Assembly: GCA_017962605.1 (NCBI GenBank)
Contig: JAGCUY010000007.1
Coordinates: 752 to 64,751, forward strand
DNA length: 64,000 nucleotides
Origin: Kiritimatiellia bacterium
GTDB taxonomy: Bacteria; Verrucomicrobiota; Kiritimatiellia; RFP12; JAAYLN01
Direction of reading: 5' to 3'
Shown here: in pieces, positions 23,888-51,097 of the stretch
How the letters are laid out: every line of letters begins with the position of its first letter
How positions within the stretch are numbered: position 1 is the first letter of the stretch
Made by a program: the position numbers and the translations under genes
Notes under the pieces: model-generated
Told to the model about the DNA's origin: nothing
Database searches by the model: none
What the model saw: only the letters and a program-made list of their open reading frames with translations

Positions 23888-23917
23888 TTGCCAAAAATAT
23901 CCCAAAAATGGTATAAT
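23888..23917 (+). promoter_or_regulatory. Sigma70-like promoter with extended -10 (TTGCCA-18-TGgTATAAT) driving a leaderless transcript
   Basis: -35 'ttgcca' at 23888, 'tg' at 23909, 'tataat' at 23912..23917, and ATG at 23924. Confidence 0.5.
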
Positions 23918-23923
23918 TGTGCC

Positions 23924-24780: not shown

Positions 24781-24900
24781 GAACAATAGCCCACGGTGCG
24801 GAAATCTTGTTAGAACACGGTGCGGAAATCTCTTCAAAAGAACGAGCACACCGTGCGAGCCACTAACGACTAACCTCTAACGACTAGCTGCTAACCACAA
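24781..24900 (-). repeat. Left inverted copy (IR-L) of the island-flanking repeat
   Basis: The reverse complement ('gtggttagcagctagtcgttag...gttagtggctcgcacggtgtgc...tttccgcaccgtg...tttccgcaccgtgg') aligns with 39903..40020. Confidence 0.7.
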
Positions 24901-25025
24901 ACCTCTCAACTTTTCAACTTCTCAACTTTTCAACTCCTTGCCTATAACTAACTCCTACACCTACACCTCTTATCTACACCTAACTCCCAACTTCTCAACT
25001 TTTCAACTTTTCAACTTCAAAACAT
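24901..25025. repeat. (TTTTCAAC)n-type tandem repeat block with interspersed CTACAC units
   Basis: 'acctctcaacttttcaacttctcaacttttcaactcc...cccaacttctcaacttttcaacttttcaacttc'. Confidence 0.8.
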
Positions 25026-25119
25026 CCCCTTGACACCTCCCCTGCCCTTTGGTATTCTATTTTCACAATTTCTGATGTGGCGCGGCGGGTGCCACGCTGC
25101 AACCACCAAGGACTAACCA

Positions 25120-25170
25120 CCAAGGACTTTCGACTTTTGACTTTCGACTTTTGACTTGACTTGACAATTT
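25120..25170. repeat. (TTTCGACTT)n short tandem repeat
   Basis: 'ggactttcgacttttgactttcgacttttgacttgacttgac'. Confidence 0.7.
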
Positions 25171-26110: not shown

Positions 26111-26112
26111 AC

Positions 26113-27042: not shown

Positions 27043-27072
27043 TCTCAAACCACTCTCATCCCAGTTTTTAAA

Positions 27073-28941: not shown

Positions 28942-28944
28942 CAA

Positions 28945-30555
28945 ATGGGCGATGCGCCATCGGGAATAGGCCGCAAGTTGCAGGAGTCGTTCCGTGACTT
29001 CCTGCACGAGTCGGCGGAGATGTTCGGGGAATACGGGTTCCTCGGCGACTGCGAACGACAGCTTCGTGAACTGGAAGCTGGCATCGTCCGGCCCTTCAAC
29101 ATCGCGGTATTCGGACGCATGAAGACCGGCAAGAGTTCGCTCATCAACGCCCTGCTTGGTCGCGACCTCGCCATCACCGGCGTTGAGGAGACGACGGCGA
29201 CAGTAAACGTCATCTCGCATTCGGATGACCCCGCTATGCGCGGCAAATTCACCGTCCACTGGAAAGACCGTCCGCCTGAAACGTTCCTGCTTGACCGCCT
29301 CACCGTAGACTGGTCAGGCAAATCGAGGGAGGTCGTTGAGAAGGTCGCGAACACGGCCTATCTTCAACTCTACTCGGACGACCCCGCCCTAGCCCTCCAC
29401 GAAATCATTGACACGCCAGGAACAGGTGCGGCGGTCTCTGACCATGAGAAAGTCGCCCAGGCCTTCCTTGATCCGTCCGTGCAGGAGGGGCGCAAGGCCG
29501 ACGCGCTTGTCTATGTCTTTGGCATAAACGGGCGCGAGACCGACGAGGCGAATCTCAAGACATTCCGCGAGGGATGCCTACCCGGATCAAGGCCATACAA
29601 CAGCGTCGGCGTTCTTCACAAATGGGATGCCACCTATTGGAACTCCGGCGGAGACTGGGCGGAAATCCAATCGAAGGCCGAACGCCTAAAAGGGCAGATG
29701 GCTTCCGTCGTGGCGGATGTCATCCCAGTCAGCGCACCAATCGCCATGGCCGCCGCGCGGGCGACCGACGACGACCTCGCGACGGTCATTGCGCTAATCG
29801 GCAATAAGGGCGGCGAGTCCGTGGAGTCGCTGCTACAGGACGATGAAGACTGGAACGACGATGCGGACTGCCTGGCCTTGCGAAAACGTTTCACAATCCC
29901 TTGGATTTGCTTCCGGGTCTGTGTCCGCGAAGCCATCAAACTTGGCGATGGTGCGATGCCGGAGACACTACGCGCCCGTCTCCGCGAACTAGGCGGCATT
30001 GATCGTCTCCGCTCGTTCCTCGACCGGAACTTCTTCAAATCCGCCGCGCTCATCCGGCAGCGCCAGCAATATGCACGATTCCTCCGCGTCAAGGACGAGG
30101 CATACGCCCGCATACAAGACCGTCAGGAGGAACTGGAAACGGACGCCAAAAACTGGGATGCCCTATTTGAGCGGTCGATTGAACCAAGGTCTATTGCTTC
30201 CTGGGTCGAGCGAAAGCGCTTCCATGCAAAATCGGAACTGGAGACGCTCGTTCGGAAATGGACGGATCAGGACGGCCGATACCTCAACAGCGGCATCCCG
30301 AAGATCCTCGACGACCTCAACGCGCTGGACTGGTGCGCCGCCCATCCCGAACGCATATCCGAGACGGAGCTTGCGGCTCTTAATACGATGGCCGATCGCC
30401 TCGCCGGCGATGAAGCTGCCGCTTTGGACGCGGACATGCTCCGCGCCGTAAAAAAGCGCTTTTCGTCGCTCCGGCTCGGAACGCTGGACGCCGCAGGGCG
30501 CAAACTCGCCGATTATCTTTCACGCCGCATTGACGCCGCACTCCGCCTGAAATAA
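28945..30555 (+). CDS. Bacterial dynamin-like protein, copy 2 (paired with copy 1)
   Basis: G1 'GRMKTGKSSLINALLG' and G3 'IIDTPGTGA'. A 3-nt gap separates it from copy 1, the typical tandem BDLP arrangement. Confidence 0.7.
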   Translation: MGDAPSGIGRKLQESFRDFLHESAEMFGEYGFLGDCERQLRELEAGIVRPFNIAVFGRMKTGKSSLINALLGRDLAITGVEETTATVNVISHSDDPAMRGKFTVHWKDRPPETFLLDRLTVDWSGKSREVVEKVANTAYLQLYSDDPALALHEIIDTPGTGAAVSDHEKVAQAFLDPSVQEGRKADALVYVFGINGRETDEANLKTFREGCLPGSRPYNSVGVLHKWDATYWNSGGDWAEIQSKAERLKGQMASVVADVIPVSAPIAMAAARATDDDLATVIALIGNKGGESVESLLQDDEDWNDDADCLALRKRFTIPWICFRVCVREAIKLGDGAMPETLRARLRELGGIDRLRSFLDRNFFKSAALIRQRQQYARFLRVKDEAYARIQDRQEELETDAKNWDALFERSIEPRSIASWVERKRFHAKSELETLVRKWTDQDGRYLNSGIPKILDDLNALDWCAAHPERISETELAALNTMADRLAGDEAAALDADMLRAVKKRFSSLRLGTLDAAGRKLADYLSRRIDAALRLK

Positions 30556-30567
30556 AGGATCACGACA

Positions 30568-32718: not shown

Positions 32719-32754
32719 CATCGCAAGCACATTACGTTCAGGTTGAATAATAAG

Positions 32755-35340
32755 ATGAATAATTCTATCGGCATCGACTTCGGCACCACCAAGACGATGG
32801 TGTCGTATTTGAATCCCGTCACCGGCAGGGCGGAACTCGTCGTTTTGGATAAAAATCGCGACCGGCCTTCCATCCCTACGACTATTCATCAGGATGAAGC
32901 AGGGCAAGTCGTTTTTGGTGAAGAGGCCGATGACCAATTAGCCTATGATCCCGAAGGCTATTGCCGCGCCTTCAAACTTCATCTGGGGGAAAACGACCCC
33001 GTGTTGACTCGGACGGGGGCTACGGCGGAGGCACTGACGGAGCGCTTTCTTGAACATATCAAAGAGGAATGCGAACTGAACGTCTTCCACGGAGAGTCGA
33101 TAGACACGGCGACCATCACGGTGCCGGTGCTGTTCTCTCCTTCGCGAAAGGCGTCGTTGAAGCGTGCCGCGGAGGCGGCCGGATTCTCCTCGGTTTCGTT
33201 TCTGCCCGAGCCGGAAGCCGCTGGAACGGCGTTCCTGCGCGACAATCCGGCAGACAAGTTCTCACGGGCGCTTGTCCTCGACTGGGGTGGCGGCACACTC
33301 GACATCGCCATCATTTCCCGGAACGAAGATGGGGCTATCCATGCGGACCGCCATTGCGCGGAAGGACGCGATGACGTAGGCGGAGAGGAGATGGACAGAC
33401 TATTGCTTGGCGCGGGAAATGAATTGTGGCGCGCTACATTCGGGTTGCCCTTGATTGAGTCCGAGGAAAACGAGCCGAAGCTCTTGCGTGAGGCGGAGAA
33501 AGTAAAGATTGGCCTTTCCCGCAAGGATACGGCTACTTTTAGGCGCGTGACGAGGAAAGTCGATGTCTCACGGGCGCAGTTCAAGCAACTTATTGCGGAA
33601 ATGCTCGATTCTGCAGTCGAACTTGTCCAGTCTTCGCTTGCGAAGAACAAGAATCAGGGCAATCCCGCGCCAGACGCCATCCTTTTGATTGGCGGCACTT
33701 GCCAGATTCCAGCCGTCCGCGAGGCAATGGAGACAAACTTTCCTGAACTCCGTGTCCTGTCATGGCATCATTCGCACGAGGCTGTGGCGCTGGGAGCTAT
33801 AGGAACTACCACGGCAAATATCCATTCTGGCGTCAACTTCAAATTCCAAGCCAAATACGATTGGCTCAAAAGAGAGAGGGTGCCAACTCTAGGAGGCGCA
33901 ATTGAATCCGGCATCTACCAGACTCCAGATGGAGGCTGGCAGTGCAACTACGACGGAGATTGGGGGTATGGTTGCGCGATAACGCTTCGTCCCGGCGAAG
34001 CCGAACCCTATGAAGTCCACGGTGAGATCTGCAAACGGTGGTATTGGGAAGGCGGTGCCTTTGACGAAAACGGCAGACGAGGCTGGTTGGGCTATCCTAT
34101 CTCCGACGAAGAGGCCTTTGAAGGCGACGGCGATCCCGCCGATCGCATTTCGCACTTCGAGAACGGGGACATCGTATGGTCGGAGAAAACGAAAGAGACC
34201 CGCATCGTCAACATCAAGGATCTAGCAAAGTGGCGCAACTTCAAATTCCAAGCCAAATATGATTGGCTCAAGAGAGAGAGGGTGCCAACTCTTGGGAGCG
34301 CAATTGAACCCGGCATCTACCAAACTCCAGATGGAGGCTGGCAGTGCAACTACGACGGAGAATGGGGGTATGGTTGCGCGATAACGCTCCGTCCCGGCGA
34401 CGCCGAACCCCATGAAGTCCACGGTGAGATCTGCAAACGGTGGTATCGGGAAGGCGGTGCCTTTGACGAAACCGGCAGGCGGGGCAGGTTGGGCTATCCT
34501 ATCTCCGACGAGGAGGCCTTTGACGGCGACGGCGATCCCGCCGACCGCATTTCGCACTTTGAGAACGGAGACATCGTATGGTCGGAGAAAACGAAAGAGG
34601 CCCGCGTTGTCAACATCAAGGATCTGGCAAAGTGGCGCAACTTCAAATTCCAAGCCAAATACGATTGGCTCAAGAGAGAGAGGGTGCCAACTCTTGGGGG
34701 CGCAATTGAACCCGGCATCTACCAAACTCCAGATGGAGGCTGGCAGTGCAACTACGACGGAGAATGGGGGTATGGTTGCGCGATAACGCTTCGTCCCGGC
34801 GATGCCGAACCACATGAAGTCCACGGTGAGATCTGCAAACGGTGGTATCGGGAAGGCGGTGCCTTTGACGAAACCGGCAGGCGGGGCTGGTTGGGCTATC
34901 CTATCTCCGACGAGGAGGCCTTTGAAGGCGACGGCGATCCCGCCGACCGCATTGCGCACTTCGAGAACGGAGACATCGTATGGTCGGAGAAAACGAAAGA
35001 GACCCGCATCGTCAACGTGTTGACGGATGAAGCTTTGCGCCTATTTGCCGGATTATCCCAAGTAGATGGCGCCTTAAACCAAACGGAAGTTGATTTCATG
35101 GAGAAATGGTATCCCGGTTCCACTACCAAGTCGGCGTGGAACGAAAAATTGCTGTACTCCGACGAAACAATAGAAGCATTAGCCGACAATGCCGCAACAT
35201 CATACAATTGCAACAAACAAGTATTGTCGGCGTTGATGCAGCATCTATGCGAATTCGTTTTATGCGACGGCCTCATGAATTCAAGCGAGAATGCTGCGCT
35301 CTCGTGGATCAACTATTTCTTCTTTACCAAGTATCAATAA
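32755..35340 (+). CDS. Hsp70/DnaK-type NBD ATPase fused to three tandem LGFP-like repeat modules
   Basis: 'IGIDFGTTKTMVSY', 'LVLDWGGGTLDIAIIS' and 'ILLIGGTCQIPAVRE' are present. Then come 3 x ~134-aa repeats containing 'GWLGYPISDEEAFEGDGDPADRISHFENGDIVWSEKTKE'. Start is ATG at 32755 (TTG at 32743 is also possible). Confidence 0.65.
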   Translation: MNNSIGIDFGTTKTMVSYLNPVTGRAELVVLDKNRDRPSIPTTIHQDEAGQVVFGEEADDQLAYDPEGYCRAFKLHLGENDPVLTRTGATAEALTERFLEHIKEECELNVFHGESIDTATITVPVLFSPSRKASLKRAAEAAGFSSVSFLPEPEAAGTAFLRDNPADKFSRALVLDWGGGTLDIAIISRNEDGAIHADRHCAEGRDDVGGEEMDRLLLGAGNELWRATFGLPLIESEENEPKLLREAEKVKIGLSRKDTATFRRVTRKVDVSRAQFKQLIAEMLDSAVELVQSSLAKNKNQGNPAPDAILLIGGTCQIPAVREAMETNFPELRVLSWHHSHEAVALGAIGTTTANIHSGVNFKFQAKYDWLKRERVPTLGGAIESGIYQTPDGGWQCNYDGDWGYGCAITLRPGEAEPYEVHGEICKRWYWEGGAFDENGRRGWLGYPISDEEAFEGDGDPADRISHFENGDIVWSEKTKETRIVNIKDLAKWRNFKFQAKYDWLKRERVPTLGSAIEPGIYQTPDGGWQCNYDGEWGYGCAITLRPGDAEPHEVHGEICKRWYREGGAFDETGRRGRLGYPISDEEAFDGDGDPADRISHFENGDIVWSEKTKEARVVNIKDLAKWRNFKFQAKYDWLKRERVPTLGGAIEPGIYQTPDGGWQCNYDGEWGYGCAITLRPGDAEPHEVHGEICKRWYREGGAFDETGRRGWLGYPISDEEAFEGDGDPADRIAHFENGDIVWSEKTKETRIVNVLTDEALRLFAGLSQVDGALNQTEVDFMEKWYPGSTTKSAWNEKLLYSDETIEALADNAATSYNCNKQVLSALMQHLCEFVLCDGLMNSSENAALSWINYFFFTKYQ
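33835..35013 (+). repeat. Near-identical 402-bp tandem repeat x ~2.9 inside the Hsp70-NBD gene
   Basis: Units start at 33835, 34237 and 34639 ('aacttcaaattccaagccaaata(c/t)gattggctcaa...'), with only a few substitutions between copies. Confidence 0.85.
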
Positions 35341-35425
35341 TGGCATCTGGATGCAGCCAAAAGCACACCATCTAGGAGGAATAACCATGGCCACAACCAA
35401 GACATCCACCACGGAGGACTAATTC

Positions 35426-36592
35426 ATGGGACACACAACCGAACCAACTGGCGAGAAGCCGCCTGTTGAGCAATGGCTCGCAAACACTGGAAAGCATTCT
35501 GCGGAATGGACTTTCCGATCTGTCAAGAACTTCTTCAAATTTGAACACCCAACCGAAACAGAGGTTTCACGATTCGGAAGTGCCGCAGCCACTTTTGAGT
35601 TTTCCCGATTGTTTCCGCTTGCCGTCGTTTGCCTTGGCTTCGGATGGATTGGATCATGGATATGCTCTGTCTGCGATTTGGATGTAGAATCCGATTCCAG
35701 ATGGGCGATATGGCCAATCGCCTTTCTTGCCCTATATGGTGTTATTAGAGCTCTGAAGCATTTCCTGCGGCCAAAGAGCATCGAATGGTGGCCAAATGCG
35801 CTGATCTGTGCATTTACTGCCACAATAGGGTTGCTAACCCTTTTCCTCTTTCAGAGCCTGGCTGACGTAATGGCGGATATTGACGCAAGGCGCGGTTTTG
35901 TGGCATTGGTAAAAATGATTGGGCAATGCTATCGAGCAGTTGACGATCCCGAAGCTGGTCTTTCTGAGAAGTTCATAGGCTATATTGGAGGAGTCGGTCT
36001 TTGTGAGGAATCCGTGAAGATTCTCCCAGTTTGCCTCCTGATGGTCAACAGGAAAAAACTGCCGTTCAGACTTGAATTGTCTTTCCGGTCATTTTTGACA
36101 TTGGCATTCTTCTCCGGACTTGGTTTTGGCATCGGGGAGGCGCTATATAGCTATGCCATTCCTGAAAATGGCGATTTGGATGCCCAATTGTCACGGTGGT
36201 TCGCCTGCGTCCCCTCGCATGCGATCTATACAATGATCGATGCCGCCTTCCTTTGGCTACTGCAACCGCAAATCCAAAGAGCCGCAGACCCCAGAATAAA
36301 AGTAGGTTGGTTTGTCCTTTGCGTGGCAACAGTCGCTGTCTTGCATGGGATCTACGATGTCCTTTGCGTAATTCCATTTGTGGGCGTGCTCCTTGATGCG
36401 GCTTCGTTGGTGCTACTTTGGTGGGCGGTGCGGTTTTCCATTCGGCGCCGCTCCTCGGTTGACGGTTCGGATTCTTCGGGCCTAGAGGACTTCAACGCCA
36501 TGACTTTCAATACTTTTGGCAAATTTTTTGCCAAGACATATCTCATCATTCTCGTCGGCATTATCCTTTATGCCAAGTTCTGGTGTCTTTGA
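35426..36592 (+). CDS. PrsW-family intramembrane metalloprotease (anti-sigma-factor site-1 protease-like)
   Basis: RBS 'ggagga' plus ATG at 35426. Multi-TM. PrsW signature motifs 'CEESVKIL' (EExxK), 'GFGIGEALYSY' (FGxxE) and 'HGIYDVL' (HxxxD). Confidence 0.6.
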   Translation: MGHTTEPTGEKPPVEQWLANTGKHSAEWTFRSVKNFFKFEHPTETEVSRFGSAAATFEFSRLFPLAVVCLGFGWIGSWICSVCDLDVESDSRWAIWPIAFLALYGVIRALKHFLRPKSIEWWPNALICAFTATIGLLTLFLFQSLADVMADIDARRGFVALVKMIGQCYRAVDDPEAGLSEKFIGYIGGVGLCEESVKILPVCLLMVNRKKLPFRLELSFRSFLTLAFFSGLGFGIGEALYSYAIPENGDLDAQLSRWFACVPSHAIYTMIDAAFLWLLQPQIQRAADPRIKVGWFVLCVATVAVLHGIYDVLCVIPFVGVLLDAASLVLLWWAVRFSIRRRSSVDGSDSSGLEDFNAMTFNTFGKFFAKTYLIILVGIILYAKFWCL

Positions 36593-36604
36593 GGAGTATT
36601 CATC

Positions 36605-37381
36605 ATGAAGTTCATCTGTCCGCATTGCAATCAGCATTTGGAGAGTGAAGAGGATGTTGCAGGAATTGGCGTTGAATGCCCCAACTGCGGCAAAACGTTT
36701 GTCGCGGCATCCTCTGGCGCGGAAACCATGCTGGGGGAAGCTCCACAAGAGCGAACGTCTGAAGGCGAACTCGACGCTGCCAATGACTTTCTTGAACGCG
36801 CGATTGGAAACATTCTGCATGCAATCTGGGGCATAATTAGCAGAATCGGCCATGTGATTAAATGGCTTGCAATGCGCCTGTATGATGTTGTCAACTGGTT
36901 ATTCAGAATGCTAATCGACATTGTGAAGTTCTTCTTCACAATCCGTTTCCTGAAGCTTCTGGTTTTGCTGGTAGTTCTTGCGGTCGTATGCGCCGTCTTT
37001 GCGGGTATAATCGCTGCGCCGTTCTTCCTTTTGATTTGGTTCGCTCAGGGGACGCCTTGGGGCACGATGAAGAGTCTGATGGGCATGCCTTTCGTCGACG
37101 CGACCAGAGTTGTTGGGCGGACGGTGTATGCATGGCTCTGCGGAGAAGGGGTCAAACATGGTCTTTACAATGCGGCATGGATTGTTGAGGGAGTTTGGTT
37201 GGTATTGTTTGCAGGTTGGGGTGCCTGGAAGGGCGTTAAGAGCTACAAGCGCGGTGTGATTGCGCGCTGGCGTGAACGTCGAAGGATTCGTAAGGCTGAA
37301 CGCCGTGCGGAAAAGGAAGCCAGACGGGCAGCAAAAGAAGCAGCAAGGCAGGGCGAGGCCCAGCCACTCGCTATTCGCTAG
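36605..37381 (+). CDS. Zinc-ribbon membrane protein (hypothetical)
   Basis: N-terminal 'CPHCNQ...CPNCGK' ribbon, several TM helices, and a C-terminal Arg/Lys/Glu-rich tail. RBS 'gaggag' is present. Confidence 0.4.
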   Translation: MKFICPHCNQHLESEEDVAGIGVECPNCGKTFVAASSGAETMLGEAPQERTSEGELDAANDFLERAIGNILHAIWGIISRIGHVIKWLAMRLYDVVNWLFRMLIDIVKFFFTIRFLKLLVLLVVLAVVCAVFAGIIAAPFFLLIWFAQGTPWGTMKSLMGMPFVDATRVVGRTVYAWLCGEGVKHGLYNAAWIVEGVWLVLFAGWGAWKGVKSYKRGVIARWRERRRIRKAERRAEKEARRAAKEAARQGEAQPLAIR

Positions 37382-37419
37382 CCAAATCGGCGACACAATC
37401 CAAGAAAGGACGGTAAAAC

Positions 37420-38499
37420 ATGGGCACGATACTTGGAGACATGTTCAAGAAGGTCGGGGGTGGCCTTGGAAAAGGCTTTGCGTCATGGCTTGGGCAAATC
37501 TCGACGTGGATTGCGCTTTTAGTCGCAACAGTACTGGCTGTCGCATCTCTGGTTGGCGGCATCTTCTGGATCCCGACAAAAACGCTGGGCGTCCTGATCG
37601 CTGGCATCGGGTGTTTAGCTTCCGGCATTCTCTTTGCCCTCTGTCTGCGAAAGAGCGGAGTATTTGGCTCAAAGGATGCGGAAACCCGTGCTGCATTGCA
37701 GAAGGAAATCGAAAAACTCCGCTGCGAAAAGGATGCCCGCATCGCCGCGTTGGAGGCCGACAACGAACGTCTAAAGCACCAGCGCATCGACGTCAATTCG
37801 TTCGCGCCCATCCTCAAGCTGGGACTTGCCGAGGCTGACATGTCAGTTCGTGATGTGAAAATCGAATGGATGGACGATTTCAAGCCAGGAAACATGTTGA
37901 CGAATGTGATTGGCTACCCCGCGCGCAGCAAATACGTTGGTGTCATTCAACGGTCGTTCAAGGCCGTTTATGGCGTCGATTTGATGAAACTCAAGATTTG
38001 CGAGGATAACGACTGTCTTCGCATAGCCGGTATCGTGCCGGAGAACATCGGCATCAAGGATGACGAAACGCGCTGGCTTCTGCGTCAGACGCAGACTTTC
38101 CGGTTGAAGGGAACTCCTCTGACGCGCGGCGATGGCATCCCGCAGCAATGCGCCATAGGCGACGGCTGGGGCGATGGCGAGAAATTCTGGCAAATCGACA
38201 AGGAAGCGCCGTTCGAGGGCAGTCTCGATCTCAACAAGACTGCGGAAATGGCGAGTGCGCAGGAGCACGAGCTTGGCGAACGCATCAACCGAAGCCAGGG
38301 CGCCGAGTTTAGGATGATGAATGGCTACATCCAGCAAATGGCGCAAGGGTTTGTCAGACTCCTCCTCGCTCCCGCCCACAAGCCTGTGGTCTTCGTACAG
38401 ACTCCGCTTGCCGAAATCGCCGACTCTCCAGCATGGCTCTCTCTGGAAGACTTCGCTGCCGGATTCAACAATAAGTTGCTGGCGGAAAACAAACCATGA
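37420..38499 (+). CDS. Membrane protein with coiled-coil segment and DUF4230-like C-terminal domain (hypothetical)
   Basis: Two N-terminal TM helices, a coiled coil 'ALQKEIEKLRCEKDARIAALEADNERLK', and a region resembling DUF4230 ('VIQRSFKAVYGVDLMKLKI...'). Confidence 0.35.
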   Translation: MGTILGDMFKKVGGGLGKGFASWLGQISTWIALLVATVLAVASLVGGIFWIPTKTLGVLIAGIGCLASGILFALCLRKSGVFGSKDAETRAALQKEIEKLRCEKDARIAALEADNERLKHQRIDVNSFAPILKLGLAEADMSVRDVKIEWMDDFKPGNMLTNVIGYPARSKYVGVIQRSFKAVYGVDLMKLKICEDNDCLRIAGIVPENIGIKDDETRWLLRQTQTFRLKGTPLTRGDGIPQQCAIGDGWGDGEKFWQIDKEAPFEGSLDLNKTAEMASAQEHELGERINRSQGAEFRMMNGYIQQMAQGFVRLLLAPAHKPVVFVQTPLAEIADSPAWLSLEDFAAGFNNKLLAENKP

Positions 38500-39134
38500 C
38501 CAAAACAAGAACGAAGAAGTCCGCCAAGGGTGGGGCCATGAAGCCTTCCCTGCGAGACCGCATCTACACCTCCTTCGAGCAGATGACGGATGCGTACAAC
38601 GAAGTGCGTGATGACCTGATCGCGCTGGGCATTCTTTGGAGGGGCTCGAAGCTCGACAAGGTGGAGTGCTACTATGAATCCATCGCCCCCATTGCCGCTC
38701 TCAAGGGGGGGATGGGGTATTTCAGTTTCAAGGACCACGACATCCATTTTCCCTCCTTATATCTGCCTTTCGGCTGGCTGACCGGCAGCGTTGGCGAAAA
38801 AGATTCTGCATCAAACGTGATCCGCCACGAGTTCGGCCACGCGCTCGCCGATCAGTACCCAGCGGCGCTGAAAAAGGGCGGGCTTTTCCGCGAGGCGTTT
38901 GGAGGAGTCTATTCCGACAAGCCTGCGCCCGACATCGATCCCGACAACTGGGAGTTCGATTGCGTCTCCCCCTACGCCGCAACCGAAACCCGCGAGGACT
39001 TCGCGGAGACTTTCATGCTTTTCCTGAAGCACAAGGGGAAGTTGCCGAAAAAGTTCGCTAATAAACCAGCCATCGCGAAGAAATGGGCCGCTGTGGCTGA
39101 AATCATAAAGCGCGTTCGTGCATTAGAAAACTGA
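38496..39134 (+). CDS. HExxH zinc metallopeptidase-like protein
   Basis: 'IRHEFGHALAD' (HExxH) with a downstream Glu in 'REDFAETF'. Its start overlaps the previous stop (ATGA). Confidence 0.5.
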   Translation: MTKTRTKKSAKGGAMKPSLRDRIYTSFEQMTDAYNEVRDDLIALGILWRGSKLDKVECYYESIAPIAALKGGMGYFSFKDHDIHFPSLYLPFGWLTGSVGEKDSASNVIRHEFGHALADQYPAALKKGGLFREAFGGVYSDKPAPDIDPDNWEFDCVSPYAATETREDFAETFMLFLKHKGKLPKKFANKPAIAKKWAAVAEIIKRVRALEN

Positions 39135-39161
39135 AAGAATACCTAATCAGGAGACCTCATC

Positions 39162-39872
39162 ATGAATAAAACAACAACGAAGAAAAATGCGCCAAAGGCG
39201 CGTAGGGAAACTGAAACCGTAGTCTGCCCACATTGCGATACGGAGTGCCTTGTGTCGGAAAACGGACGCTATGAGTGTCCAAATTGCACAGGACAGTTCG
39301 ATGTAGACTGGTTTGACACGCCGCATGTCCACCAGCCCGACTTGCAGACATGCGGCTGGGCGACGACAAAGTGGCTTCTGTCCGCATTTGGGTGTGAGAT
39401 GCCATCAAACAAGCAACTCGAACGGGAACTGCATGTCCGCAAAGGTCGCGATGGTCTTTCGGGCGCACTTCTCAAGGCTTACAACTACTTTATCGAAGCT
39501 TTCGGCAAGAAGTGGAACTGGCAAAAGATCGACTCTCAGGACATTTCTGGAACTTTGCCCACCGACCTTGTCGCGACACTCAATCGACATGGACTCAAGC
39601 CTGTATTTCCTGGAATCCGCGAACTGCTCCGCTATTCCGACTATAAGAACTACATGAAAGAAGTGTTCGCCCAGCAAGGCCGTTTTGCGCTCTTCTATGT
39701 TAACACGACCCGCGATGGGTCTTATGCACATTGGATCGGGATTGAGAAGTTCAAGAACAGGGTCCGCGTGATGGATCCCATGGACTATGACTACTCGCCG
39801 TTTTCAAAGCACGAAGCCATCCGCAGCAAGCGAATTCGCGCATGCTGCATGATTGGGTTCGTGAGGGCGTAG
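39162..39872 (+). CDS. Zinc-ribbon + Peptidase_C39-like (papain-fold) domain protein
   Basis: 'CPHCDTEC...CPNC' ribbon. C39-type 'QPDLQTCGWATTKWLLSAFG' (Gln/Cys) and 'SYAHWIGIEKF...VMDPMD' (His/Asp). RBS 'aggaga' is present. Confidence 0.5.
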   Translation: MNKTTTKKNAPKARRETETVVCPHCDTECLVSENGRYECPNCTGQFDVDWFDTPHVHQPDLQTCGWATTKWLLSAFGCEMPSNKQLERELHVRKGRDGLSGALLKAYNYFIEAFGKKWNWQKIDSQDISGTLPTDLVATLNRHGLKPVFPGIRELLRYSDYKNYMKEVFAQQGRFALFYVNTTRDGSYAHWIGIEKFKNRVRVMDPMDYDYSPFSKHEAIRSKRIRACCMIGFVRA

Positions 39873-39902
39873 GGCGCTGTCGCGCCTGAGAGGTTTGTCG
39901 CC

Positions 39903-40265
39903 CGTGGTTAGTGATTAGTCGTTAGTCATTAGTGGCTCGCATGGTGTGCATCCCCTATCGAATATTTTCCCGCACCGTAATCTATCGACTTCTCCGCACC
40001 GTGGTCTAGCGACAATTCCTAACCTTAGTCTAGCGACCTTTCCGACCCGTAGTCTATCGATGTTTCCTCGCCATAGTCTATCGACATTCCCGCATGGTAT
40101 AGCCTATCGACTTTTCCGAAACATGATCCAAAGTTTTTCCGAACCATGGTCAGTTTTTCTTTCCGCACCATGGTCTATTTTTCTTTCCGCACCATGGTCT
40201 ATTTTTCTTTCCGCACCATGGTCTATTTTTCTTTCCGCACCATGGTCTTGTGAAACGAATGCATG
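39903..40265 (+). repeat. Right island-flanking repeat (IR-R): 'gtggttagtgattagtcgttag' head plus ~12 degenerate 24 to 27-bp tandem units ending in 4 perfect 'tttttctttccgcaccatggtcta' copies
   Basis: Direct reading. It matches 42030..42310 in the same orientation and 24781..24900 in inverted orientation. Confidence 0.8.
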
Positions 40266-40369
40266 GCGGCGCCGCATCAGCAGCTTGCGCATAGCGGGAG
40301 TGGTTGTGATACTACTCAATCAGATGACAAAGTGTGTAGATAGCAGAATGCGCCTGAGCAGAATACAGG

Positions 40370-40452
40370 TGGTTGTGAAAATGGAAAATTTGGCATATTT
40401 TGTGGTTGTGAAAATGTGAAAATCTGTATGTTTTATGGTTGTGAAAATGGAG
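40370..40452 (+). promoter_or_regulatory. Three ~31-bp direct repeats 'ggttgtgaaaatg' (iteron/operator-like) plus -10-like 'gatataat' upstream of the AAA ATPase
   Basis: 'ggttgtgaaaatggaaaatttggcatattttgtggttgtgaaaatgtgaaaatctgtatgttttatggttgtgaaaatggagcgaatatgatataat'. Confidence 0.4.
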
Positions 40453-40491
40453 CGAATATGATATAATATCTTGAATTTTGGGAGAATCTGC

Positions 40492-41862
40492 ATGATAAAC
40501 AGAAAAATAATGAAGAGGCTTGAACTCCTGCGTACTTCCAATGGAAAGCACGCGCTTCTCATCGATGGCGCGCGACAGACTGGGAAGACTTACATTGTAA
40601 GGGAATTCGCAAAAAGACATTACGAGTCCTTCATTGAAATCAACTTTATCAGAATGAAGAGGGCTCGGGAAATTTTCGAAAACGTCGAAGACGAGAAGGA
40701 CATCCTTGTAAAACTGTCAGCCCTGTTTAAGAAACCGCTGAAGAAAGGCGCAACGCTTGTGTTCCTTGACGAAGTTCAGGAATGCCCGGAGGCTGTCACT
40801 TACATCAAGTTTTTGGTGGAAGAGGGGTCGTGCCATTATGTGTTGAGCGGGTCCCTGCTGGGTGTCGAACTCAAAAACATTCGTTCGGTGCCTGTCGGGT
40901 ATATGGATGAGGTGAAGATGTATCCGCTGGACTTTGAGGAGTTCGTCGAGGCGAACGGTGAGTCCCCTGAATTGGTAGAGGCCGCAAGACAGTCGTGGAA
41001 CAAGCGCCGCCCGCTTGCCTCCGTCTATCACACGAGGCTGCTGAAACTTTTCCGGCTTTACCTTGTTGTTGGCGGCATGCCCGCCGTTGTCCAGAAATAC
41101 ATCGACACCCACGACATCGCCCAAGTCGTGCGCGAACAAAAAAAGATACTTGCGCTCTACCGCCGGGACATAACGCAATACGACGAGGCGAATTCCCTTC
41201 GAATTCGTGCCGTGTTCGACCGCATTCCGGCGGAGCTAAACGAGAAGAACAAGCGGTTTTTTGCGTCTTCCATAAAACCGGGCGTGAAGTTTGAAAACCT
41301 TGGAGACGAGTTCCTTTGGCTGAAAGAGGCTGGCGTGGCCCTTGCCACGGTTAACGTGGAGGCGCCGAAGTCGCCGCTCAAGCTTGCTGAGAAGCCAAGC
41401 TTGTTCAAGCTGTTTTCAAACGATGTCGGACTTCTGGCGGCCCAGTACATGAATGGAATCCAACTTGAGATCTTGAATGGAGCCGTGGATGTCAACTTTG
41501 GGGCCGTTTACGAGAACGCTGTGGCGCAGGAACTCGCCGCGCATGGGTTTGAGTTGAACTATTACGATTCAAACAGGCACGGGGAGATTGATTTTGTTTT
41601 GGAGCGCGAAGGGGGCGTTCTTCCCGTGGAAGTCAAGAGCGGAAAGCACTACAAGCGGCATCGTGCGTTGAACCATGTAATGGCGGACCGTGAATACGCG
41701 ATAAAGGAGGCGCTTGTCCTTGACGATTCGATGCTTTCCGTTGAAAATGGGATATTCTATGCGCCAATCTACATGGTCATGTTCCTGAAAAGGGACACCA
41801 TGCCTGAGAAGATGATCTACTCTGTAGGCACACCGCTGGAAGTGGCAAAAGCCTTGTCATGA
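40492..41862 (+). CDS. AAA+ ATPase (AAA_14 + DUF4143 family ATP-binding protein)
   Basis: Walker A 'GARQTGKTY' and Walker B 'LVFLDEVQ'. RBS 'gggaga' plus ATG at 40492 (the track start at 40471 is TTG). Lower G+C. Flanked by direct repeats. Confidence 0.6.
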   Translation: MINRKIMKRLELLRTSNGKHALLIDGARQTGKTYIVREFAKRHYESFIEINFIRMKRAREIFENVEDEKDILVKLSALFKKPLKKGATLVFLDEVQECPEAVTYIKFLVEEGSCHYVLSGSLLGVELKNIRSVPVGYMDEVKMYPLDFEEFVEANGESPELVEAARQSWNKRRPLASVYHTRLLKLFRLYLVVGGMPAVVQKYIDTHDIAQVVREQKKILALYRRDITQYDEANSLRIRAVFDRIPAELNEKNKRFFASSIKPGVKFENLGDEFLWLKEAGVALATVNVEAPKSPLKLAEKPSLFKLFSNDVGLLAAQYMNGIQLEILNGAVDVNFGAVYENAVAQELAAHGFELNYYDSNRHGEIDFVLEREGGVLPVEVKSGKHYKRHRALNHVMADREYAIKEALVLDDSMLSVENGIFYAPIYMVMFLKRDTMPEKMIYSVGTPLEVAKALS

Positions 41863-42029
41863 ACTTCCAACATCCTGCAGCCCGAACCGCATCCACCGGC
41901 ACGGCCACGGCGGCAAGTGCATCTGGTGCGGCTCAACCTCCACCGGCAGCGGGTGCCCATACTCCCCTACCCGCCGGCATGAACGGTAGAGGGCAGTGTG
42001 AACTTAGTCGCAATACTGTCTGAAGTTAA

Positions 42030-42310
42030 TCATTAGTCGTTAGCCGTTAGTCACTAGTCGTTAGTGGCTCGCACGGAGTGTATTCCCTATCGAATACTTT
42101 CCCGCACCGTAATCTATCGACTTCTCCGCACCGTGGTCTAGCGACCTTTCTGACCCGTAGTCTATCAATGTTTCCGCACTATAATCTATCGACATTCCCG
42201 CACGGTATAGTCTATCGACTTTTCCGAAACATGATCCAAAGTTTTTCCGAACCATGGTCTAATAATGTTTACGCTCCATGGTCTATTGGCATTTCCGAAC
42301 CATAGTCTTG
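42030..42310 (+). repeat. Second direct copy of the IR-R repeat
   Basis: 'cattagtcgttagccgttagtcactagtcgttagtggctcgcacggagtgtattccctatcgaatactttcccgcaccgtaatctatcgacttctccgcaccgtggtctagcgacc...'. Confidence 0.8.
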
Positions 42311-42314
42311 TGAA

Positions 42315-42410
42315 AGGGTGAGCCCTTCGGGCGAAGTTTGGAGGTTTGGCGCAATAGCGCCTTGGATGGTTGAGCCATTAGGGCGAAGTTTAGGAGTTTG
42401 GCGTGAAATC
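42315..42410 (+). repeat. 'gagcccttcgggcgaagtttggag' small repeat element (2 tandem copies)
   Basis: Further copies at 43116..43185 (same orientation) and 49275..49400 (inverted: 'ccaaacttccaaacttcgcccgaagggctcaaac'). Confidence 0.7.
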
Positions 42411-42423
42411 CTTTTTTTGTTTT

Positions 42424-42510
42424 TTTACCATGCGTTTCGTGGAAGTTTACAATTTTTTAACCATGCATTTCGTGGTAATATGACAATTTATTAACCACGC
42501 ATTTCGTGAT
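42424..42510 (+). repeat. Three ~31-bp direct repeats 'ttaaccatgcatttcgtgg' upstream of the truncated ATPase paralog
   Basis: 'accatgcgtttcgtggaagtttacaattttttaaccatgcatttcgtggtaatatgacaatttattaaccacgcatttcgtg'. Confidence 0.6.
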
Positions 42511-42517
42511 TGCTTGA

Positions 42518-43117
42518 TTGGCAAAAATATCGAAATATGATATTGTATTGGAGAGCAGCGCCCGTTTCCGCGAATACGAAGGTGCCTTCATGTGGCTAAA
42601 GGATGCCATGGTTGCAAATGTCGCCCTAAGCGTAACAGATCCGAACATTGGGTTTGACTTGAGCGCCGACGATGCCAAGATGAAATGCTACTTCCTTGAC
42701 ACGGGGCTTCTTGTCAGCCATGCGTTCAGCGAAAACGCGCTTGTCGCCGCCGACATCCACAAGAGAATTCTGTTTGATGACATCGAATTGAATGAAGGAA
42801 TGCTTGTTGAAAATGTCGTGGCCCAAATGCTATCTGCAGCCGGCCACAAGCTTTACTACTACTCAAATTCATCGCGGACCGATAGAGACTCCCGGATGGA
42901 AATTGACTTTCTCCTTGCCAGAAACACCCTGGGCGAGCGGAACAATGTTATTCCCGTTGAGGTGAAGAGCGGGAAGCGGACAACGCACCGTTCGCTAGAC
43001 AAGTTTCGCGCCAAGTTCGCAAACTACGTCCATACCCCTTGCATTCTTTCGCGGCGAGATTTAGAGATAAAGGACGGGATACTTTACCTCCCGCTCTACA
43101 TGACTCCATGTCTTTGA
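42518..43117 (+). pseudogene. N-terminally truncated paralog of the DUF4143 AAA ATPase (C-terminal ~200 aa only, no ATG)
   Basis: The ORF begins with TTG. It aligns to the C-terminal third of the 40492..41862 product ('FMWLKDAMVA' vs 'FLWLKEAGVA'; 'VIPVEVKSGKRT' vs 'VLPVEVKSGKHY'). Confidence 0.55.
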
Positions 43118-43316
43118 GCGCCGAAGTTTGGCGCTTACGCGCCCTTGATGTTTGAGCCATGCGGGCGAAGTTTGGAAATGGAGGATTGCGTGGCAGCGTG
43201 ATGGCAAAGGCTGGTTGCATTATTGCCGCTGTTTGCCTTTGAAGGGGCTTTTTTGATAAAATGAATATGTTGGAATTGCTTTATTTTTGAGAGTGAAAAA
43301 CAACGAGAACCAGGCA

Positions 43317-49274: not shown

Positions 49275-49400
49275 GGCGCCTCCGCGCCAGACATCTAAAC
49301 TTCCCAGGCGCGCCAACGCCAAACTTCCAAACTTCGCCCGAAGGGCTCAAACTTCCAGGGCGCGCTAGCGCACACTTCTCGCCCTTTCGGGCAAGGGAAA
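49275..49400 (-). repeat. Inverted copy of the 'gggcgaagtttgg' repeat element
   Basis: 'ccaacgccaaacttccaaacttcgcccgaagggctcaaacttccagggcgcgc' is the reverse complement of the 42315/43116 copies. Confidence 0.7.
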
Positions 49401-49634
49401 CACCCTTCTGTCTGAAAGATTTTTCCATAATATCGCATTTTGAGGAGCGAGGAGGCGAGGCAATTCGCTACGAAAAGTGTGTCGTAGGCTGGATAATTCG
49501 CTACGAAAAGTGTTGCTGGGTGGATGGACCTTAGAAAGTCTGGCGGCGAACTCTACTATAGGCGTGACTATTCCGCCCACCTGAACGAATACAGCGGAAT
49601 CTTCACCATGATGAATATTTCGGTGCATTGTCCC

Positions 49635-49662
49635 TTGACAGAAGGGCAGAAAATGTGATATT
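49635..49662 (+). promoter_or_regulatory. Sigma70-like promoter (TTGACA-16-tgtGATATT) upstream of hipB-like gene
   Basis: 'ttgaca' at 49635 and 'gatatt' at 49657. ATG at 49673 gives a very short leader. Confidence 0.35.
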
Positions 49663-49672
49663 CTTCAATATA

Positions 49673-49888
49673 ATGAAAATTGATGAGATAGGATCGTTTC
49701 TTGCACAACGGCGCAAGTCGCTGAAAGTCTGCCAGCGGGATTTGGCGGCCTTGAGCGGCGTTTCCGAACACGCGCTTGTCAATCTGGAACGCGGCATCGG
49801 CAACCCCACCCTAAAACTTGTCAATGCGGTGGCCGATGCATTGGGACTTGAACTTAACCTTTCCGTGAAGGACCAGGAGGCGACATGA
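49673..49888 (+). CDS. hipB: XRE-family HTH antitoxin (HipB-like)
   Basis: HTH 'LKVCQRDLAALSGVSEHALVNLERG'. It lies immediately upstream of the HipS/HipT-like genes. Confidence 0.6.
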   Translation: MKIDEIGSFLAQRRKSLKVCQRDLAALSGVSEHALVNLERGIGNPTLKLVNAVADALGLELNLSVKDQEAT

Positions 49889-50202
49889 AATGCGTTACGG
49901 TTTATGTGAAGGGGGTCGAGGCCGGTGTGCTTGCCCGCTTTCGAAACGGCAGCTATGAATTCCGCTATACGCGCCGTTATCAGGAAAGCGCGAGGCCGTC
50001 GGTAGCCTTTTCCCTTCCAAAGCGCAAGGCCGTTCATCGCTCGGCAAAGTTGTTCCCTTTCTTTTTTGGGCTGCTTGCCGAGGGCGAGCAGAAGCGAATG
50101 CAGTGCCGGACATTGCGGATTGACGAAAACGATCATTTTTCCCGCCTTGCGGAGACCTGCAGGGAGGGGACAATAGGAGCCGTGTATGTCCTCCCGCGCT
50201 AA
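49885..50202 (+). CDS. hipS: HipS-like protein (stand-alone HipA N-terminal subdomain)
   Basis: 105 aa; RBS 'caggagg'. It corresponds to the HipA_N region and overlaps the downstream kinase by 17 nt. Confidence 0.6.
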   Translation: MKCVTVYVKGVEAGVLARFRNGSYEFRYTRRYQESARPSVAFSLPKRKAVHRSAKLFPFFFGLLAEGEQKRMQCRTLRIDENDHFSRLAETCREGTIGAVYVLPR

Positions 50203-51097
50203 AGTCCCTGATACACTGCCGTTCACTAAAGCGGACCTGAGGCTTCCGGTTATCGCGCGAAAGGGACGGCGAAACTCAATTTCCGGAGTTCAGCCCAAGG
50301 TTTTGCTTTCGATTGTCAAGGGTGAACTTGCGGTTGTGGAGACCGGTGGTGACTTCATTCTCAAGCCCGCTCCGGAGGATTCCCGCGCCAAGTTTCTGTC
50401 GGACATTCCGGCAAACGAGCACTTGACGATGACAATCGCATCACGGCTGTTTCGAATCCAAACGGCGGAAAACAAATGTGTCCGCTTTGCCGACGGGGAA
50501 CTCGCGTACCTTACTCGCCGTTTTGACCGCAGGGGCGGCGAAACCCTCAGACAAGAGGATCTTTGCCAGATTGCCGGGCGCAGCGAGGAAACCCATGGCG
50601 AGTCCTACAAGTATGACTTCAGCTACGAGGAAATGGCCGACATCATCCGAATGGCCTGCCCAGCCTGTCGCGTGGAACTGCCGAAGGTCTTTCGGCAGAT
50701 TGTATTCGACTACATTTTTGCCAACGGCGATGCCCACTTGAAGAATTTCTCAGTCTATGAAAGCAAACTGGGCGACTATGTGATGACGCCTGCCTACGAT
50801 TTGCTCAACACTTTTTTGCATTATCCGGGCGACCCAACATTCATGGCATTGTCCCTTTTTGGCGATCCTGATTTCATGACGCCGGAGTTTGAGCATCTTG
50901 GCTATTACTCGACACCGGACTTTGTGGCATTGGGGCGGGCCTATGGGCTTGACGATCGGGCCGTTTGCAGGATTCTGGATGAATTCAAGACGAATTCAAA
51001 AAAGGTGGAATTGATGGTCAGGGACTCCCTTTTGTCCGAAGATGCGAAAAAGGAATACCTTTGCATCTTCTACGACCGCCTCGCAATGTTTCGCTGA
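50186..51097 (+). CDS. hipT: HipT-like Ser/Thr kinase toxin (HipA C-terminal kinase core)
   Basis: P-loop-like 'ISGVQPKVLL' and catalytic 'GDAHLKNFSV' (DxHxKN) are present. Confidence 0.7.
   Translation: MSSRAKVPDTLPFTKADLRLPVIARKGRRNSISGVQPKVLLSIVKGELAVVETGGDFILKPAPEDSRAKFLSDIPANEHLTMTIASRLFRIQTAENKCVRFADGELAYLTRRFDRRGGETLRQEDLCQIAGRSEETHGESYKYDFSYEEMADIIRMACPACRVELPKVFRQIVFDYIFANGDAHLKNFSVYESKLGDYVMTPAYDLLNTFLHYPGDPTFMALSLFGDPDFMTPEFEHLGYYSTPDFVALGRAYGLDDRAVCRILDEFKTNSKKVELMVRDSLLSEDAKKEYLCIFYDRLAMFR

Follow-up and report, generated by a model that had tools for sequence, protein, structure and literature searches.

In Neisseria, the arrayed intergenic repeats known as NIME, which are built of dRS3 and RS units, and the so-called minimal mobile elements border genes that vary between strains, such as restriction-modification and toxin-antitoxin (TA) genes, and they are thought to serve as substrates for recombination. 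The MIRU-VNTR of Mycobacterium, the BOX elements of the pneumococcus and the REP/BIME sequences of enterobacteria are likewise lineage-specific, intergenic, multi-copy and modular, with a variable number of units. Here we describe a composite repeat, built around tandem units of about 24 nucleotides (nt), in a stretch of 64,000 nt from a Kiritimatiellia bacterium (assembly GCA_017962605.1, contig JAGCUY010000007.1, positions 752 to 64,751; hereafter the window, with coordinates counted from its first letter). Two copies of this element bracket a gene for a two-domain ATPase at 39.9-43.2 kb, a segment that is best explained as the right edge of a chromosomal defence island, ~20 kb long and low in GC, in a rumen member of the Kiritimatiellae. 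We know of no phage or transposase that targets the 24-nt element.

The element resembles NIME in that arrayed short intergenic repeats border accessory genes, but the two have no sequence relationship, and contiguous 24-nt units with a heptad leader stand in place of the 20-nt inverted repeats that flank RS units of 50-150 nt in NIME. From MIRU-VNTR, BOX and REP it differs in unit size and sequence, it is not palindromic as REP is, and the loci at which it was observed are concentrated at defence and TA modules and not within operons. It fits among the lineage-specific dispersed intergenic repeats and lacks the hallmarks of attC sites, iteron-type origins and transposon ends. Its sequence is without a described counterpart in the sources searched: neither the core motif nor any intergenic repeat of Kiritimatiellae turned up in a search of the literature, and Rfam reported no family at the gathering threshold anywhere in the window.

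The bracketed gene, too, has described relatives. PDC-S01 is a candidate defence family in which an ATPase is joined to a PD-(D/E)XK domain. It came to light through "guilt by embedding", and no other single candidate defence locus is as frequent in rumen metagenome-assembled genomes (MAGs; PMC13356809, PMC12988326). Most PDCs, S01 among them, are without experimental validation (PMC12988326). By its sequence, the ATPase encoded in the window (ATPase 1) is a member of this already catalogued family, which it matches over the full length of the hidden Markov model, with the same two-domain architecture and a setting among defence genes (AbiE, Leo-like dynamins and, nearby, HipBA). Its rumen source agrees with the reported high frequency of PDC-S01 in rumen genomes, and the gene itself shows no difference from the family. 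What the locus would add to the PDC-S01 picture are two small new observations, neither of which was found in the literature searched: a conserved set of two to three direct repeats at the promoter, with a sequence particular to each lineage, and the repeated loss of the AAA domain. With regard to the locus as a whole, we place a probability of roughly 0.6 on homology-driven shuffling of defence modules at dispersed repeats; the island edge holds one intact and one decayed PDC-S01 gene.

Anatomy of the Composite Repeat

The guanine-plus-cytosine (GC) content of the window falls to 0.46-0.58 at 23.6-43.2 kb, against ~0.63 outside, and this low-GC segment holds an AbiEi gene, two LeoA/LeoBC-like dynamins, two HSP70-like genes, a PrsW protease and others, with two ATPases at its right end. 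The large repeat occurs on the same strand at 39873-40253 (copy 1) and 42026-42313 (copy 2); the copies are 80% identical over ~290-350 nt and bracket the full AAA_14+DUF4143 ATPase gene. This arrangement, already proposed in an initial annotation made from the sequence by eye, was borne out by blastn comparison of 39.8-43.3 kb with the window, which aligned 39904-40200 with 42036-42308 on the same strand at 80.5% identity over 297 columns (E 4e-80); a repeat search of the window gave 84% over 213 ungapped nt for the same pair. On the minus strand, a third and shorter copy at 24787-24908 is 74% identical to copy 1 over 122 nt (blastn, E 1e-15); it adjoins an AbiEi/AbiEii remnant and is 81% identical to the terminal array of another locus, L104.

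The large repeat is a composite of a hairpin, four to six GTTAGTC heptads, the sequence GGCTCGCAYGG and then tandem units of ~24 nt, which number ~12 in copy 1 and ~9 in copy 2. Tandem Repeats Finder (TRF) assigned a period of 24 to both large arrays, whose minisatellite core is the 17-nt sequence TTCCGCACCGTGGTCTA; an 18-mer of the core matched the window 14 times at up to three mismatches, against 0.01 matches expected. Copies 1 and 2 end alike in GGTCTTGTGAAA, and the last four units of the copy 1 array are identical or nearly identical. The hairpin of copy 1 starts directly past the stop codon of a 236-amino-acid (aa) gene, and the head of this copy is kept in L115 and L104 behind unrelated genes. 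Folding of the array as RNA or single-stranded DNA, on both strands, gave z scores of about -2 and no convincing structure. An open reading frame (ORF) of 157 aa at 39946-40419 was considered as coding sequence and rejected: the units of 20-26 nt break the frame, copy 2 retains an ORF of 75 aa only, and two-unit copies exist.

One order of parts, namely large repeat, spacer, three small repeats, promoter and ATPase ORF, occurs twice on the plus strand between 39.5 and 43.6 kb. The first occurrence ends in an intact gene and the second in a remnant. Coordinates of all parts are collected in Table 1.

Dispersion of the 24-nt Element

Array loci outside the window were found by a motif search of a metagenome collection with a two-unit pattern, which returned eight true loci, representing about five places, and three further matches due to chance. 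Arrays with the same core and a period of 24-25 nt lie in L102/L106/L109, L104, L105/L112 and L108. Across these genomes the 17-nt core is conserved and the 7-nt spacers differ, while individual units decay by transitions; the unit logo carries a bias, since the units were picked for their likeness to the core. In many cases, L104 and L115 among them, one and the same head (hairpin, GAAGTTTGTG, heptads) stands ahead of the core. There is also a minimal form in which two inverted cores are separated by a conserved spacer of ~26 nt (L102 7445-7504; L105 8828-8887, 9840-9900, 10848-10907 and 12134-12193). The element is therefore multi-copy and non-coding, dispersed at unrelated loci with 2 to 12 units, as is expected of a dispersed intergenic repeat or minisatellite.

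Its distribution is sparse. The core (at up to three mismatches) is absent from ~44 kb of high-GC window backbone, from ~200 kb of other Kiritimatiellae loci, retrieved by way of their proteins, and from 619 kb of unrelated control loci, which argues that the element is lineage-restricted and not the ubiquitous, genome-wide REP-like sequence that would have undermined the initial annotation. A scan of a genome collection with TTAGTGGCTCGCAYGG gave 82 loci in unrelated taxa, all by chance, and the 24-mer occurred in none; a scan of a viral contig collection for tandem cores gave no match. Within the window, all three arrays fall in the 19.6-kb island, an arrangement with a chance probability of ~0.03 that is weak when taken alone.

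In L105, five consecutive TA cassettes (PIN/VapC-like, HTH plus Gp49, HTH) are separated by a terminator hairpin, an array and one inverted unit. The array of L108 has HipBA as its neighbour. L104 carries a PDC-S01 gene (752-2035), intact AbiEi/AbiEii, a PIN gene and four arrays.

Several further observations were made at these loci. Inverted repeats of at least 110 nt, with a terminator hairpin among their parts, enclose the five-cassette TA island of L105 (8718-13298). The ends of L104 (1-60 and 10537-10596) are identical over 60 nt, as would be seen in a circular molecule of 10.5 kb or in a segment between identical repeats; the terminal overlap would suit a plasmid, but no recognisable rep, par or mob gene was found in L104. 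At 7040-7800 of L102, two short ORFs with an FF[RK]xKV-like C-terminal motif follow a fucosidase-like gene, each preceded by an inverted core pair of ~60-100 nt; they may be orphan C-terminal cassettes. A similar motif stands at the end of a leucine-rich-repeat (LRR) protein in L115.

Turnover Between Strains and Instability of the Arrays

The strain comparison turns on L115 (GCA_016282515.1, of which L111 is a part), whose tetratricopeptide-repeat (TPR) protein is 98% identical to that of the window and whose shared DNA has a nucleotide identity of 96-99%. The TPR gene lies to the right of the island; around its homologs of 84% and 78% identity (L118 and L121) synteny is already lost, and the 98% strain alone is informative. 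To the left of ATPase 1, L115 carries the gene for the LRR protein, of 1695 aa, followed by a short element (head, two units and hairpin repeats); at the same place the window carries a 15-kb dynamin/HSP70 island and the 12-unit array. By blastn, homology resumes at 40264, 10 nt past the array. Further right, L115 has a 1.77-kb segment with its own promoter and a PDC-S27 (ATPase_2) gene in place of window positions 42819-43230, and it has lost hipA (50186-51097) by deletion. The initial annotation had called for a presence/absence comparison with related genomes and had proposed cassette turnover. Turnover of genes at the locus is supported by L115, which lacks the adjacent dynamin/HSP70 island and has a different left flank and the PDC-S27 replacement, and further by the separation of TA and defence modules by the repeat family elsewhere.

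Differences of gene content or order accompany the arrays at other loci as well. L102, L106 and L109 share a left flank and an array and diverge 120-230 nt beyond it, and the repeat-bounded TA island lies in opposite orientations in L105 and L112 relative to the same left flank.

The arrays themselves are hypervariable. Between the window and L115, the ATPase 1 coding sequence (CDS) is 99.4% identical, the other unique flanking segments (upstream, spacer, remnant) are 98.9-100% identical, the 34-nt repeats with their promoter 96.2% and array copy 2 93.4%. Copy 2 shows 19 differences over its 288 nt; the other five segments together show 17 over 2165 nt (Fisher p 1.6e-9), and the arrays are thus about 10 times more variable than their flanks. 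A 62-nt indel separates the two strains in the hairpin block at 42314-42415. Identical terminal units in copy 1 number four in the window, three in L001 and L002 and two in L004, all in short-read assemblies. Copy 2 of L115 contains a patch that is identical to copy 1 of the window and not to copy 2, which points to gene conversion between copies.

The Two ATPases and Their Promoter Repeats

ATPase 1 has Pfam matches to AAA_14 at residues 20-151 (2e-27) and to DUF4143 at residues 224-384 (8e-26), and residues 1-440 match positions 1-441 of the 452 in the PADLOC profile for PDC-S01 (PDLC04792, E 1.9e-184). Weak matches to Cas4, YraN and NERD fall at residues 335-400. An AlphaFold2 (AF2) model with a pLDDT of 77 comprises an AAA+ core (1-155), a helical region (159-250) and an alpha/beta domain (272-431). 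A sequence search of the PDB gave no match. Archaeal Orc1/Cdc6-DNA complexes head the Foldseek ranking of PDB structures, at a low TM-score of 0.28, with MuB at rank 9; the modelled likeness to Orc1/Cdc6 is a weak lead and would not serve as a classification. Those relatives of ATPase 1 and of the nearby TPR protein that carry a name belong to the Kiritimatiellae, and the contigs that bear them come from ruminant gut metagenomes.

The second ATPase is incomplete. It lacks AAA_14 and the first ~35 positions of DUF4143 and retains the C-terminal three-quarters of that domain, so that it is not a complete two-domain protein; it corresponds to residues 261-429 of ATPase 1, with 32% amino-acid identity. 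The retained promoter-like sequence runs nearly straight into mid-gene sequence, by which we recognise the ORF at 42548-43117 as a 5'-deleted remnant. The initial annotation was right to see an N-terminally truncated paralog; its statement that the ORF has no start codon needs amending, since a TTG at 42518 lies inside the retained promoter and an in-frame ATG at 42590 opens a possible ORF of 175 aa that gene callers report. In L115 the remnant has a 1-nt frameshift and has lost its 3' part. The proteins nearest to the remnant (55-73%) and those nearest to ATPase 1 belong to different lineages, and the ATPases are 32% identical where the repeats are 80% identical, which argues that the repeats were not duplicated along with the genes. 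The two genes are, as judged from these comparisons, distant paralogs from two lineages and not the result of a recent local duplication.

Relatives of the remnant elsewhere show similar losses. In L125 (1-460), a 62% relative keeps the N-terminal 14 codons and the three 34-nt repeats and has lost the AAA domain by an internal deletion (compare L123 1-200); this deletion differs from that of the remnant, which suggests that loss of the ATPase part is recurrent in this lineage. Many database relatives of the remnant are DUF4143-only proteins of 190-330 aa, which may reflect recurrent ATPase loss or a short form that is functional.

Each ATPase is preceded by three small direct repeats, as the initial annotation had stated, and the sequences of the two sets do differ; their periods are 33 and 34 nt (TRF) and not ~31. 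Each set holds 2.5-3 copies, and both motifs are unique within the window and unrelated to each other. Upstream of ATPase 1, a promoter scan found TTGTGA-17-TATAAT with a TG extension (40439-40467, score 10/12), whose -35 hexamer is supplied by the last 33-nt repeat; upstream of the remnant, the last 34-nt repeat ends just ahead of a -35-like hexamer. Orthologs of ATPase 1 at 90, 84, 75 and 68% identity lie in four unrelated neighbourhoods (L089, L090, L091 and L094-L101), and all four have two to three copies of GGTTGTGAAAATGG or its drifted forms GGTTGTGAAAGT and GGTTGACAAAATGAC, with the -35 borne by the last copy. At the DNA level, L089 and L090 become homologous to the window within the repeats (40403/40372) and cease to be so ~35-40 nt ahead of the stop codon (~41820-41828), which delimits a transferable module of repeats, promoter and CDS of ~1.5 kb. 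The remnant's motif, AACCATGCATTTCGTG, stands three times with the same 34-nt spacing and promoter junction upstream of the 62%-identical relative in L125, and in a third PDC-S01 lineage (L104) 3.6 copies of a 23-nt repeat precede a TTGACT-17-TAGAAT promoter.

The small repeats thus recur upstream of relatives in unrelated contexts, with a sequence specific to each lineage, and so belong to the gene. They had initially been called iteron-like; they are associated with the promoter and conserved with the gene, and no DnaA-box cluster or other origin feature was found at them, so that reading them as iterons is not sustained. They are most likely operator or tandem-promoter sites, and might possibly be bound by the ORC-like ATPase itself. 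As a separate observation, a different 24-nt tandem repeat, GCGCCAAGTGACGGGTCGAAAAC, stands three times at the contig start of L089 (60-130), upstream of the 90% ortholog; its reverse complement bears a loose likeness to the core (TTTCGACCCGTCAC versus TTCCGACCCGTAGTC).

Proposed Shuffling at Dispersed Repeats and Its Alternatives

In the reading that we favour, single-gene modules (PDC-S01 here and PDC-S27 in L115) would accumulate and decay at the edge of the defence island, each PDC-S01 module bringing its own promoter repeats, and the dispersed composite element would fill the spacers between defence and TA modules. Copies of the element would evolve by slippage and gene conversion and would supply dispersed homology, at which homologous or illegitimate recombination could add, remove, exchange or invert modules; such homology-driven exchange would account for the differences observed between strains. 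What the data show directly are the anatomy of the locus, the families of its genes, the dispersal of the element, the polymorphism between strains and the hypervariability of the arrays; a causal role of the arrays in rearrangement is what we infer. The locus had originally been taken as an integration hotspot. The flanking repeats did not arise through insertion of the cassette but are members of a dispersed family, and a hotspot in the sense of site-specific integration finds no support: the genes at 23.6-47 kb and those beside the arrays in L102, L104, L105 and L109 include no recognised integrase, transposase or resolvase, the 15 ORFs examined at 23.8-47 kb have no recombinase domain, and no target-site duplication or att-like palindrome was found. 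A tRNA scan of the window found none, and hence no tRNA-linked integration site.

A number of points weigh against homology-driven shuffling. The association of arrays with TA and defence modules is counted over ~6 independent loci that were found by motif search, and the arrays come from the window and metagenomic contigs, the genome-collection scan having given chance matches only. L102, L106 and L109 have no recognised defence gene nearby; there, the inverted-pair minimal elements separate orphan C-terminal fragments. The breakpoints of these three loci, moreover, lie off the array (by the 120-230 nt given above) and not in it. The differences in unit number and the inversion between L105 and L112 could be artefacts of short-read assembly. 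Two of the ortholog contexts (L091 and L094-L101) have no 24-nt array, from which it follows that the gene does not need one. Finally, binding of the core by a protein, and of the promoter repeats by the ATPase, is conjectural, and the similarity to Orc1/Cdc6 is weak (TM 0.28).

The conserved core may be a protein-binding site, and the arrays could be binding platforms (an insulator, a roadblock, a nucleation site for silencing or a decoy for a regulator) whose position at module borders is a by-product. Such a role would be compatible with shuffling at the repeats. It would account for a core that is conserved across genomes when the 7-nt spacers are not, for the regular spacing of 24-25 nt and for the position of arrays between the terminator-like hairpin of one module and the next promoter. 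However, no candidate binding protein was identified, the orientation of arrays relative to the downstream gene is inconsistent, and unit numbers that run from 1-2 to 12, with units decaying by transitions, are what weak constraint would produce; the conservation itself is read from a logo of units selected by similarity to the core. As the main explanation of the locus, we consider binding platforms rather doubtful.

A dedicated system of site-specific recombination or capture, its enzyme encoded elsewhere and the core arrays serving as its recognition sites in the manner of attC or of Neisseria dRS3/NIME, is decidedly unlikely in our judgement. The five TA cassettes in a row in L105, each individually bounded by the element, recall an integron, in which small and often TA-encoding modules lie between a recurring repeat (attC or VCR) and strain turnover is high. 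The minimal form, with its two inverted cores and ~26-nt spacer, and the window/L115 breakpoint 10 nt from the end of array 1 would also suit such sites. Against this, no IntI or attI was found, nor any of the enzymes listed above at 23.6-47 kb or beside the four loci searched. Whereas attC sites are imperfect palindromes, the window copies are purely direct tandem arrays without an inverted core or unit, and their folding is unremarkable. The cassettes have their own promoters, and the orientations of cassettes and arrays are mixed. Breakpoints other than that at array 1 lie 120-230 nt from arrays, and the PDC-S27 junctions (42818/43231) are not at a core motif. We are as sceptical of a fuller version, in which the core TTCCGCACCGTGGTCTA would be the site of an integron-like machinery that shuffles defence and TA modules and the PDC-S01 ATPases would, separately, bind their own promoter repeats in ORC-like fashion.

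It is very improbable that the elements are ends or relics of transposons (of the Tn7, Mu, Tn402 or IS21 type, with an AAA+ partner) or a miniature inverted-repeat transposable element with 17-nt terminal inverted repeats. Tandem sites of ~22-24 nt are typical of Tn7- and Mu-type ends, inverted-core minimal elements of ~60-100 nt exist, and MuB is among the Foldseek matches of the ATPase. Yet no DDE transposase is present among the genes examined, copies 1 and 2 are in direct orientation, copies 3 and 1 face away from the island, and no target-site duplications are visible at the minimal elements; 9-12 contiguous units are far beyond known transposon ends, and the MuB match reflects generic AAA+ similarity.

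Two explanations can be dismissed more briefly. A local tandem duplication of repeat plus ATPase, followed by divergence and decay of the second copy, would give both units the same order of parts, but it is refuted by the discrepancy between proteins at 32% and repeats at 80% nucleotide identity, by unrelated promoter-repeat motifs and by the separate lineage (55-73%) of the remnant's relatives, and we give it next to no credence. Just as remote is an integrated plasmid or other replicon with the repeats as iterons or centromere-like sites and the ORC-like ATPase as initiator: direct repeats of 17-34 nt beside an AAA+ gene resembling the initiator clade, a 17-nt core at a 24-nt period that has the tandem form of RK2/R6K-type iterons, top Foldseek matches to Orc1/Cdc6-DNA complexes and the identical 60-nt ends of L104 would all speak for it, but no DnaA-box cluster or AT-rich unwinding element was found near the arrays (the sequence after array 1 is GC-rich) and no Rep, Par or Mob gene was recognised in the window island or in L104, several arrays lie within 4 kb in L105 and arrays adjoin many unrelated genes, the small repeats overlap or abut a sigma-70-type promoter, and the gene is a chromosomal defence candidate with a nuclease domain whose orthologs lie among ordinary non-mobile genes (two-component regulators, glycoside hydrolases), in two contexts without an array.

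Features of the Locus and Its Surroundings

Table 1. Coordinates and basis of the features at the right-hand end of the island and of the third repeat copy.
Feature	Position	Strand	Basis and remarks
Repeat copy 3, short form: heptads, GGCTCGCACGG, two units of 24 nt	24787..24908	-	Inverted relative to copies 1 and 2; blastn, core matches at 24787 and 24811, alignment
Head of copy 1: hairpin GGCGC-TGTC-GCGCC (39873-39886), GAGGTTTGTCGCCCGTG, GTTAGTC-type heptads (39907-39933), GGCTCGCATGGTGTG	39873..39965	+	Sequence, TRF, five-copy alignment
24-nt minisatellite of copy 1: ~12 units, core TTCCGCACCRTGGTCTA	39966..40253	+	TRF period 24, core scan
Spacer from array to ATPase module (~115 nt from array end), with degenerate fourth GTGGTTGTGA motif at ~40304	40264..40368	+	blastn against L115, sequence
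Three 33-nt direct repeats (GTGGTTGTGAAAATGG...)	40369..40467	+	Repeat search, TRF
Full-length AAA+/PD-(D/E)XK ATPase, 456 aa, PDC-S01 (ATPase 1)	40492..41862	+	Pfam, PADLOC, AF2 model
GC-rich spacer with 54-aa ORF (41859-42023)	41863..42025	+	ORF list; 100% identical in L115
Repeat copy 2: heptads (42026-42065), GGCTCGCACGGAGTG, ~9 units of 24 nt	42026..42313	+	Repeat search, TRF, blastn, alignment
Second small repeat family: GAGCCnnnGGGCGAAGTTTGG and GGCGCnnnnGCGCC hairpins with GAAGTTTGG motifs	42314..42415	+	Repeat search; blastn to 43123-43177 and, on the minus strand, 49316-49384
Three 34-nt direct repeats (TTAACCATGCATTTCGTG...; 42416-42508) and retained promoter-like site TTGGCA-17-TATTGT / TTGATT-16-TATGAT	42416..42546	+	Repeat search, TRF, promoter scan
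5'-deleted PDC-S01 remnant	42548..43117	+	Pfam DUF4143 positions 36-160 only; PDC-S01 profile positions 261-433
Hairpin/GAAGTTTGG repeats (43117-43180) and terminator-like hairpin (43235-43258)	43117..43262	+	Right edge of low-GC island; L115 homology resumes at 43231

Some features of the table deserve comment. The ATG of the GC-rich 54-aa ORF overlaps the stop codon of ATPase 1 (ATGA); the ORF is not present after orthologs in other contexts and is possibly the relic of an older gene. The tetraloop hairpins of the second small repeat family (42314-42415, 43117-43180 and, on the minus strand, 49316-49384) flank the ATPase remnant and also adjoin a hipBA-type module (HTH, Couple_hipA and HipA_C; 49603-51097), in which the HipA_C gene is the one deleted in L115 (16357-16817).

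The remainder of the island has content of its own. At 23888-24739, an AbiEi gene is followed by what appears to be an AbiEii remnant with an internal deletion (short pieces from either terminus, identified by eye) that abuts copy 3. The 12 plus-strand genes at 25436-39872 encode a C39-like peptidase, two dynamin-like GTPases (LeoA/LeoBC, with Eleos-type PADLOC matches), a PrsW protease, two HSP70/MreB-like proteins (one with Sel1/TPR and one with LGFP repeats), a Zn-ribbon protein, an Mx-type metallopeptidase and three proteins without a family. The whole block is absent at the equivalent position of L115, and it has the appearance of a defence or conflict system of several genes, as yet uncharacterised. 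The HSP70-LGFP gene (32743-35340) contains a 402-nt sequence repeated three times in tandem at 95% identity (33828-35016); the gene calls of L001 and L002 differ at this repeat, which suggests variation or collapse of repeat number.

Tandem heptamers and octamers of differing sequence (ACTACGC, AACTTYTC, GACTTTY, CTAGCCC, GTGGCTA and CCCTGTT) often stand at gene ends, both in the window (9041-9136, 23663-23733, 24900-25018, 25101-25157 and 61384-61467) and in L105 (2147-2315) and L102 (7895-7992). They resemble the heptamer STRR repeats of cyanobacteria.

Significance

Ordinary processes explain most of the structure of this locus, and a function of the arrays is something that we infer. PDC-S01 is reported to be among the commonest candidate defence genes in prokaryotes. 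Every PDC-S01 lineage that we examined has two to three promoter repeats of lineage-specific sequence, which would point to autoregulation or to sequence-specific DNA binding by the ORC-like ATPase-nuclease. The arrays also bear on how such genes are surveyed: they break short-read assemblies, as is seen in the many homologs that lie on contigs of 1.5-3 kb, and the context of defence genes in MAGs of this kind is consequently lost in a systematic manner. In one lineage of the Kiritimatiellae, a hypervariable 24-nt element punctuates defence and TA modules and coincides with breakpoints of gene content between strains, and it thereby offers a natural system in which the turnover of defence islands may be followed.

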